From IMG/VR virus record IMGVR_UViG_3300025316_001101: DNA of 64,000 nt; one strand, given 5' to 3'. Every line of letters starts with the position of its first letter. Position 1 is the stretch's first letter. Under the pieces are notes generated by a model. That model saw nothing but the letters and a program-made list of their open reading frames with translations. It was not told the origin of the DNA and ran no database searches. Shown piece by piece: positions 28,511 to 28,837 of this stretch. The DNA is from a virus (Duplodnaviria > Caudoviricetes). The translations under genes were made by a program, and so were the position numbers.

Positions 28511-28621
28511 AATAAAAAAGCCTTCCTTAAATTCCTTTTGGGAACTTGAGGAAGGCTTTTTCTTCTCACTCAGGTTCCCTTTTTGGGGGCTCCTGAGTGC
28601 TATTTCTGCGATCTCAGGAGC
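28511..28621 (-). promoter_or_regulatory. transcription attenuator: alternative hairpins plus intrinsic terminator
   Basis: Mutually exclusive pairings 1:2 (9 bp), 2:3 (8 bp), 3:4 (10 of 11 bp), terminator GCCTTCCT/AGGAAGGC plus U tract. Confidence 0.7.
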
Positions 28622-28727
28622 AAGTGGTATCGACGGTCTCCGGGCGTTCTGGGCGCACGGCGGCGGGTCGTCCGTTTCCGGCGACTGTCGCTACTGCTCG
28701 CTCTATCGTCCTGAACATCGACATCAT
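28614..28727 (-). CDS. 37-aa putative leader peptide MMSMFRTIERAVATVAGNGRPAAVRPERPETVDTTCS
   Basis: GGAG SD; stop codon lies inside attenuator segment 1. Confidence 0.65.
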   Translation of the reverse strand: MMSMFRTIERAVATVAGNGRPAAVRPERPETVDTTCS

Positions 28728-28808
28728 TTTGCTCCGTTTACCCTTAGACGCACCATGCGGCCAAAAGGTTCACTAAATTTTTAGGCAGAACATCTGCCTC
28801 GTAACAGT

Positions 28809-28837
28809 ATTATACGCTCGCCAATCCAAATTGTAAA
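28809..28837 (-). promoter_or_regulatory. sigma70-type promoter
   Basis: TTTACA-17 nt-TATAAT. Confidence 0.7.

Follow-up and report, generated by a model that had tools for sequence, protein, structure and literature searches.

In the present study, we analysed a 64,000-nucleotide (nt) stretch of viral DNA (hereafter the window), which is the reverse strand of G000:C1:163025-227024, G000 being a 259-kb IMG/VR record. The element in question, unit A, consists of a short open reading frame (ORF), alternative hairpins and a strong terminator placed between a promoter and an array of tRNA genes, and it was examined as a candidate leader-peptide attenuator of these genes. The source of the record is an uncultured huge phage from freshwater; the record is about 50% complete with a GC content of 42%, it encodes a DnaE-type polymerase, an NAD ligase, PrkA and Ro60, and the DNA runs with this stretch carry the labels of freshwater, lake or peat metagenomes. 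About 50 tRNA genes were found in the record, all of them on a single strand. Unit A is the leader within the window (motif at G000 198249), and two further units of the same record are called B (139579-139790) and C (161017-161263). The arrays behind B, C and A are arrays 1, 2 and 3, respectively.

Layout of unit A and its tRNA array

The features of unit A, in window coordinates, are as follows.

28809..28837, minus strand: predicted sigma-70-like promoter P1, TTTACA (28837-28832), 17 nt, TATAAT (28814-28809), with 11 of 12 consensus matches
28784..28798, minus strand: small hairpin GGCAG-AUGUU-CUGCC, downstream of P1 and ahead of the conserved motif, present in the minimum free energy (MFE) fold
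28745..28776, minus strand: 32-nt motif TTAGTGAACCTTTT-N11-GCGTCTA, a candidate promoter P2 of the extracytoplasmic function (ECF) sigma type (GAAC, 17 nt, CGTC)
28732..28735, minus strand: Shine-Dalgarno (SD) sequence GGAG, spaced 4 nt from the first ATG and 7 nt from a second in-frame ATG
28614..28727, minus strand: leader ORF of 37 codons and UGA, peptide MMSMFRTIERAVATVAGNGRPAAVRPERPETVDTTCS
28613..28621, minus strand: segment 1, GCUCCUGAG, which holds the UGA stop; partners are the SD/start region (long ORF hairpin) or segment 2
28589..28599, minus strand: segment 2, CACUCAGGAGC; partners are segment 1 (9 base pairs, bp) or segment 3 (8 bp)
28567..28579, minus strand: segment 3, GGGAACCUGAGUG; partners are segment 2 or the 5' arm of the terminator (antiterminator)
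28514..28561, minus strand: intrinsic terminator with a two-part stem, GCCUUCCU/AAGGAAGGC and AAGUUCC/GGAAUUU, followed by T6 (about -23 kcal/mol)
28417..28492, minus strand: tRNA-Arg(GCG), the first gated gene, 22 nt after the terminator
1..28416, minus strand: rest of the tRNA array in the window, with interspersed HNH and TnpB genes

A preliminary description of this DNA had reported the TTTACA-17-TATAAT promoter, a GGAG-ATG ORF of 37 codons with its TGA in segment 1, and three alternative pairings downstream. The promoter was found on the minus strand at 28837-28809 and the ORF at 28727-28614, both as described, and the three pairings had duplex energies far below those of the controls. 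In the 1:2 duplex, segment 1 pairs with CUCAGGAGC of segment 2 (9 bp, -16.3 kcal/mol); in the 2:3 duplex, CACUCAGG pairs with CCUGAGUG of segment 3 (8 bp, -13.3 kcal/mol); and in the duplex of segment 3 with the terminator arm, GGGAACCUGAG pairs with CUCAAGUUCCC of the 5' arm (10/11 bp, -14.4 kcal/mol). The control pairings 1:3 and 2:4 gave -4 to -6 kcal/mol. The count given there of 29 among the 37 residues being Arg, Thr, Ala, Val, Pro, Glu, Gly, Ile or Asp was also correct. The 306-nt leader of A folded with z = -7.35 and none of 100 shuffles was as stable; in its MFE fold, the SD/start side pairs with the end of the ORF including segment 1, and 2:3 and the terminator are formed as well. 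A conserved sequence, ATTGGAG or AATGGAG, was noticed behind the T-run of the attenuator terminators, at 28506-28512 of the window (minus strand), in unit C and in three units of related phages (G001, G002 and G007, described below). In four units this sequence is the SD of a small ORF that separates the terminator from the tRNAs; A has the tRNA directly behind it, so that A may have lost a small ORF.

The array in the window contains tRNAs for Asp, Val, Glu, Pro (four), Gln, Ala (three), Gly (three), Arg-UCG, Thr (two), Ile-UAU, Met, Leu and others. When terminators of -17 kcal/mol or lower are taken as strong, those of the record stand mostly behind long ORFs. The distance from the terminator of A (G000 198506) to the next strong one (230513), which is located 780 nt past the last tRNA and beyond the window start, is 32 kb; it holds about 29 tRNA genes and no other strong terminator. 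Because the array continues for 32 kb without such a terminator, leader A would sample tRNAs encoded up to 25 kb away. Array 2 is likewise bounded by terminators, at 161253 and 162630. The gap between the T-run of A and tRNA-Arg(GCG) leaves no space for a promoter.

Paralogues, codon correspondence and folding model

The paralogues were found by a search of the record against itself, in which the 36 nt immediately preceding the ATG of A appeared a second and then a third time. The motif TTAGTGAACCTTTT-N11-GCGTCTA is present exactly three times across the 259 kb of the record, once ahead of each leader (139579 for B, 161017 for C, 198249 for A) and always on the tRNA strand; the window holds one copy against 0 expected. 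Downstream of every copy there are an SD, a short ORF (37 codons in A, 25 in B and 11 in C), hairpins, a strong terminator and a tRNA array, and outside the motif the three leaders have no peptide or nucleotide similarity.

G000:C1:139579-139790: unit B, leader of 25 codons, MLFALITRRSGKCWPKHGHISHTTS; array of Lys-UUU, Ile-GAU, His, Gly-GCC, Trp and Arg-UCU
G000:C1:161017-161263: unit C, leader of 11 codons, MTRKQRNNQKP; array of Lys-CUU, Gln-CUG, Gln-UUG, Arg-CCG and Asn

Leader codons were matched to the anticodons of each array by standard wobble, with the 36 post-start codons of A scored. Leader A matched its own array at 29/36 codons (P = 3e-4 under the phage's own codon usage) and each of the other two at 1/36. 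For B, 11/24 codons matched its own array (P = 0.011), 0/24 array 2 and 7/24 the remaining array; for C, the own array was matched at 7/10 codons (P = 4e-5) and the others at 2/10 and 6/10. The anticodon species covered by the own leader were 19/22 in A, 6/6 in B and 5/5 in C, and the Fisher combined P of the three units was about 4e-8. The count for A takes in tRNA-Arg(UCG), which ARAGORN called under relaxed settings only and which Rfam also called. Exact Watson-Crick cognates in A amounted to 27/36 against 12 under the null (0 of 400,000 draws), with P = 8e-5 when the peptide was held fixed. The remaining five reading frames of B and C gave 0-5 matches.

The correspondence extends to isoacceptors. 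The Lys codon is AAA in B, where the tRNA has UUU, and AAG in C, where it has CUU; Arg is encoded by AGA in B, CGG in C and both CGC and CGA in A. For Ile, B has AUU and A has AUA; for Gly, B has GGU and A has GGA. The rare codons UGG, AGA, AUA and UGU/UGC occur exactly where the matching tRNA genes follow. Among the sense tRNAs of its array, A leaves solely Gln-UUG, Gly-GCC and Leu-UAG unsampled; Gln-UUG and Gly-GCC are also present in arrays 2 and 1, where they are sampled by C (CAA) and B (GGU). In the leader ORFs, codons that match no tRNA of the arrays lie at both ends, largely outside the responsive zone of the folding model given below. At the level of the unit family, the regulatory codons correspond to the controlled tRNAs.

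The shared motif contains GAAC-N17-CGTC, which we take to be the promoter pattern of group 4 ECF sigma factors (-35 GAAC and -10 CGTC, about 16-17 nt apart). In G000 this pattern has three sites, which are exclusively ahead of the three leaders, and judged by its letters the copy between P1 and the ORF of A would be an ECF-type promoter, an addition to the preliminary description. The motif was also considered as an RNA structure and rejected as such, since the stem difference between copies is one-sided and not compensatory; its position in unit C, ahead of the sigma-70-like promoter, means that it acts as DNA and not as RNA. About 20 unrelated bacterial contigs from metagenomes carry the same 30-nt pattern ahead of genes. 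In soil contigs of 52-61% GC (L004-L025), AGTGAACCTTTTTGGTAATCTCTGCGTCTAATGCC stands about 110 nt upstream of a gene starting with MTK(N/S)ELKKF; it looks like the promoter of a bacterial ECF regulon, differs very little from the phage motif, and may hint at the host lineage or reflect promoter mimicry. A candidate reader of the motif is encoded next to unit A.

29603..30187, minus strand: gene for a small sigma factor with two domains, regions 2 and 4, located 770 nt upstream of P1

A second small sigma factor with regions 2 and 4, more ECF-like than the first, lies about 3.6 kb further upstream and about 4.4 kb from A, and one or both of these neighbouring phage proteins could read the ECF-type motif.

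For the folding model, transcripts were cut just before the 3' arm of the terminator, and the ribosome was represented by a mask of its footprint alone or of the footprint extended back to the SD (queue mask). With the queue mask, the probability of the antiterminator was as follows.

Unit A: 0.72 with stalls at codons 5-33; 0.25-0.35 from codon 34 to the stop
Unit B: 0.69 with stalls at codons 5-20; 0.07-0.2 from codon 23 to the stop
Unit C: 0.67 with stalls at codons 2-10; 0.1-0.27 from codon 11 to the stop

In all three leaders, the antiterminator probability fell only once the ribosome stood at the last 2-5 codons. In A, a stall gave 1:2 together with pairing of segment 3 to the terminator arm, and a ribosome at the end codons or the stop gave 2:3 and a free arm. 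The drop from 0.72 to 0.25-0.35 under this mask agrees with the logic of the preliminary description, in which a ribosome at the end leads to 2:3 and the terminator and an upstream stall to 1:2 and antitermination. Dinucleotide shuffles of the segment 2-3 region reached the observed switch in 0/300 cases for A, 0/300 for B and 13/300 for C. When translation was left out of the model, A and B terminated by default; the SD side of the ORF then pairs with segment 1, so that the default state is termination.

Relatives, rival explanations and neighbouring genes

Relatives were obtained by a search with the DNA polymerase III alpha subunit, which returned records at 42-54% identity; three of them (47-53% identical) carry tRNA arrays and a unit of the same build. 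In G002, a leader of 42 codons ends in UCC-UGA-ACC like B and is followed by about 30 tRNAs; its helices 1:2, 2:3 and 3:4 have 8 bp each, with sequences unlike those of B. It matches 30/41 codons (P = 0.04) and 20/22 species (P = 0.005), and contains three Cys codons, Trp and His, with tRNA-Cys, tRNA-Trp and tRNA-His downstream. A second strong terminator of G002, before tRNA-Gln, was examined as a further unit and rejected, as it follows a small hydrophobic ORF and not a codon-matched leader. The leader of G007 has 40 codons with the UGA within segment 1; the match is 19/39 for codons (P = 0.002-0.004) and 8/8 for species. The segments of G001 are like those of A, namely CUCCUG, CUCAGGAG and CCUGAGUU. 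In the six units together, the stop codon is within segment 1 or immediately adjacent to it in 6/6, and when all leaders were compared with all arrays, the true pairing was the single best of 720 permutations. The preliminary description had proposed to look for a conserved leader ORF and covarying hairpins in related phages. The build and the 1:2, 2:3 and 3:4 complementarity are indeed kept there, by way of different sequences, but the leader peptides are unrelated.

Other routes to relatives gave less. In a blastn search of 50,697 phage records a tRNA was the sole match, motif scans of IMG/VR gave no match, and a search through the sigma factor led to near-identical contigs only. A metagenome motif scan returned one strain variant of B (99%) and unrelated bacterial promoters.

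Taken together, these results make it probable that unit A is a functional ribosome-mediated transcription attenuator tuned to its tRNA array. Several observations weigh against it. The codon match of A alone is largely explained by composition: against nucleotide shuffles P was 0.02-0.03, it rose to 0.2 under a null preserving peptide, codon box and third-base composition, and the antisense frame of A matched at 27/35 codons. For A in isolation, the earlier caveat that GC richness alone enriches the amino acids in question was right. In addition, seven leader codons (UCG, UUC, AGG, ACA, AAC, UGC and UCC) have no tRNA in the 50%-complete record. The segments used for the duplex energies were picked by eye. 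In the folding model, the single ribosome mask antiterminated A only at stalls 3, 5-9, 27, 30, 32, a partial response that arises because the free SD side re-pairs with segment 1; the assumption that queued or re-initiating ribosomes block this side was adopted after this result and is a weak point. At equilibrium, the full-length leaders always form the terminator whatever the position of the ribosome, and masks on such transcripts are uninformative; the switch can therefore only be kinetic, like that of classical attenuators. Among the relatives, the codon match of G001 was not significant (8/28, P = 0.12), and the thermodynamic model did not switch for G002 and switched in the inverse direction for G001, so that computation leaves the direction of regulation unsettled. 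The near-identical contigs offer no informative substitutions in A, their leader being identical, and the strain variant of B differs by two neutral changes only, a synonymous CAC to CAU and a loop base. Finally, a few sigma-70-like sites occur within array 3 and another, a possible bypass, just downstream of the terminator of B; given such internal sites, the attenuators are probably not the sole route to tRNA expression.

The composition caveat is countered by B and C, because they are not GC-rich; the compositions of the leaders differ as the arrays differ. The codon sampling claimed for A in the preliminary description is accordingly weak when A is taken alone and becomes strong once the paralogues are included, as seen in the matrix of leaders and arrays and in the permutations. 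This bears on an explanation that we regard as unlikely, in which the unit is a general translation-coupled or factor-controlled terminator that senses translation capacity (ribosomes, guanosine tetraphosphate (ppGpp) or host shut-off) or answers to a protein antiterminator, with the codon match as a by-product of composition. Such a terminator would fit the modelled switch, which depends on the ribosome reaching the end of the ORF and not on which codon delays it, the lack of significance of A alone under composition-matched nulls and the phage sigma factors adjoining the unit. It fits poorly with B and C, which differ in composition and each match their own array and not others, with the true pairing being the best of all permutations, and with the occurrence of UGG, AGA, AUA and UGU/UGC exactly where their tRNA genes follow. 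It is improbable to a slightly higher degree that the unit makes an independent transcript of about 290 nt, a structured small RNA or a 37-residue micro-protein, and that expression of the tRNAs depends on leaky read-through or other promoters. The tRNA region of phage T4 is known to contain small stable RNAs, the fold of A is very stable (z = -7.35), its strong terminator is always formed at equilibrium, it matches no Rfam leader family, and the record has other units with a short ORF or no ORF and a strong terminator (e.g. 119544, 121473, 130897, 232474). Nevertheless, the paralogues share the promoter motif only, unlike a conserved small RNA or protein, the stop codon lies in or touches segment 1 in every unit, a promoter has no room between the T-run and tRNA-Arg, and the correspondence of codons and arrays would be left unexplained.

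Chance is strongly disfavoured, and we consider it very improbable that a spurious GC-rich ORF simply came to lie with an ordinary promoter and a terminator in front of a tRNA, with pairings due to repeated GC-rich words. GC-rich sequence does enrich codons for Ala, Pro, Gly, Arg, Val and Thr, the antisense frame of A matches equally well and the segments were found by eye, but the motif occurs three times against 0 expected, six units share the build, three of this phage and three of relatives, shuffles rarely reached the switch (0/300, 0/300 and 13/300), and the combined codon P is about 4e-8 with a pairing that ranks 1 of 720.

Several other features were observed in the tRNA region and its surroundings. 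At G000:C1:127091-130897, a Ro60/TROVE-vWA gene is followed by about 2 kb without long ORFs that ends in a strong terminator. Two genes of the TnpB / IS605 OrfB type lie in the tRNA region (window 18322-19461 and 47213-48445, both minus strand), each with HTH_OrfB_IS605, OrfB_IS605 and Cas12f1-like TNB domains, and HNH endonuclease-like genes are scattered among the tRNAs, e.g. at window 28858-29259 and 27389-28123. Insertions of 21, 22 and 32 nt are present in or beside the anticodon loop of tRNAs at window 16932-17026 (minus strand) and 43660-43778 (minus strand) and at G000 139350-139443, and the relative G007 (L122) has tRNA insertions of 21, 21 and 47 nt; at 21-47 nt, they are too short for group I introns. 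A pair of near-identical tRNA-like genes, to which ARAGORN assigned a 2-nt 'anticodon' (CA), flanks tRNA-Val(AAC) at window 38689-38913 (minus strand), abutting it or overlapping it by one base. Two suppressor-type tRNAs with the anticodon CUA (window 16289-16362 and 43227-43301, minus strand) hint that UAG may be a sense codon in part of the phage; no leader ORF uses UAG. In the 99% identical strain variant L011 (Ga0194056 contig), a tRNA-Met(CAU) replaces the insertion-bearing tRNA-Lys(CUU) of G000 139350-139443, just upstream of unit B, so that the 5' edge of the array varies between strains.

Proposed mechanism and comparison with known systems

On the reading of unit A as an attenuator, we propose that transcription would start at the sigma-70-like promoter, the ECF-type promoter or both, and that the 37-codon leader would be translated while the polymerase advances. 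A ribosome that reaches the last codons or the UGA in time would cover segment 1, so that 2:3 forms and then the terminator, and transcription would stop 22 nt before tRNA-Arg. If the ribosome were delayed earlier, 1:2 would form, segment 3 would take the 5' arm of the terminator and the polymerase would read through into the array; if the leader were not translated at all, pairing of the SD side with segment 1 would lead to termination. As the stop codon is in segment 1, a delay anywhere upstream would count. The leader, with about 19 different codons read by the array, would then work as a cumulative race sensor of their decoding speed and as a negative feedback on the tRNA supply of the phage. 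The trigger might be depletion or cleavage of host tRNAs. A wider picture is possible and is put forward tentatively: the three leaders, their shared ECF-type promoter and the phage sigma factors may constitute a codon-resolved tRNA homeostat, in which each array would be induced separately when its own codons become slow (e.g. by host tRNA decay, anticodon-nuclease defence or host shut-off) and turned off by way of its own tRNAs, through a cumulative kinetic race over about 20 codons.

Phage tRNA genes are usually viewed as static supplements to codon usage or as spares against tRNA-cleaving defences, and to our knowledge the control of their expression is essentially undescribed. If the attenuator reading is correct, the phage gauges decoding speed codon by codon and makes sets of tRNAs on demand with negative feedback, and trp/his attenuation, among the oldest paradigms of regulation, extends to RNA genes and to viruses. 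This would also explain the sorting of huge-phage tRNA arrays by codon family. The unit would be a compact natural sensor of tRNA supply that is easily tested with reporters, and from the codons listed in such leaders one could predict the tRNAs whose loss during infection a phage anticipates.

At the Rfam gathering threshold, the window gave tRNA matches only; at E <= 1 there was no match for A, and no T-box match was obtained in the window or at E <= 1. Unit B reached a non-significant 23.7 bits with Thr_leader (threshold 55, E = 0.4). In full-text literature searches, no published description of leader-peptide attenuation of tRNA genes was found. Attenuation of an aminoacyl-tRNA synthetase operon is known from the pheM leader of pheST in E. 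coli. The pheM system resembles the phage unit in that leader-peptide attenuation acts on a translation gene and decoding speed provides the feedback, but there a synthetase is controlled, a single amino acid is sensed and the setting is bacterial, not viral. The T-box also allows read-through of translation-related genes when a tRNA is inadequately charged; however, it binds the uncharged tRNA directly and needs no ORF, whereas the phage unit has an SD and an ORF.

The leaders of thrL (Thr, Ile) and ilvL (Ile, Leu, Val) integrate several aminoacyl-tRNAs in one leader, as do the phage units. In comparison with them, the phage leaders sample from 5 to about 20 species and discriminate isoacceptors (AAA/AAG; AGA/CGG/CGC), and the controlled product is the tRNA itself, which would be a direct feedback. 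The closest layout is that of hisL (Rfam His_leader). Both have a short leader ORF just after the promoter, translated in hisL and probably so in A, an intrinsic terminator before the first structural gene, and termination by default when translation is absent. Unit A has six mutually exclusive segments as in hisL, in which pairing of the SD side with segment 1, 2:3 and 4:5 would terminate and 1:2 and 3:4 would allow read-through. However, hisL gates biosynthetic enzymes and has a run of one codon, whereas the phage unit gates tRNAs and leader A has about 19 different codons, mostly once or twice; and hisL-type leaders have their regulatory codons in segment 1, where the phage units have the stop codon. 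The features that are new in the phage units are thus the gating of viral tRNA genes, the sampling of many codons once or twice each and the stop codon in segment 1, and in place of the positional stall of classical attenuators, the phage leaders would use a cumulative race across about 20 codons.

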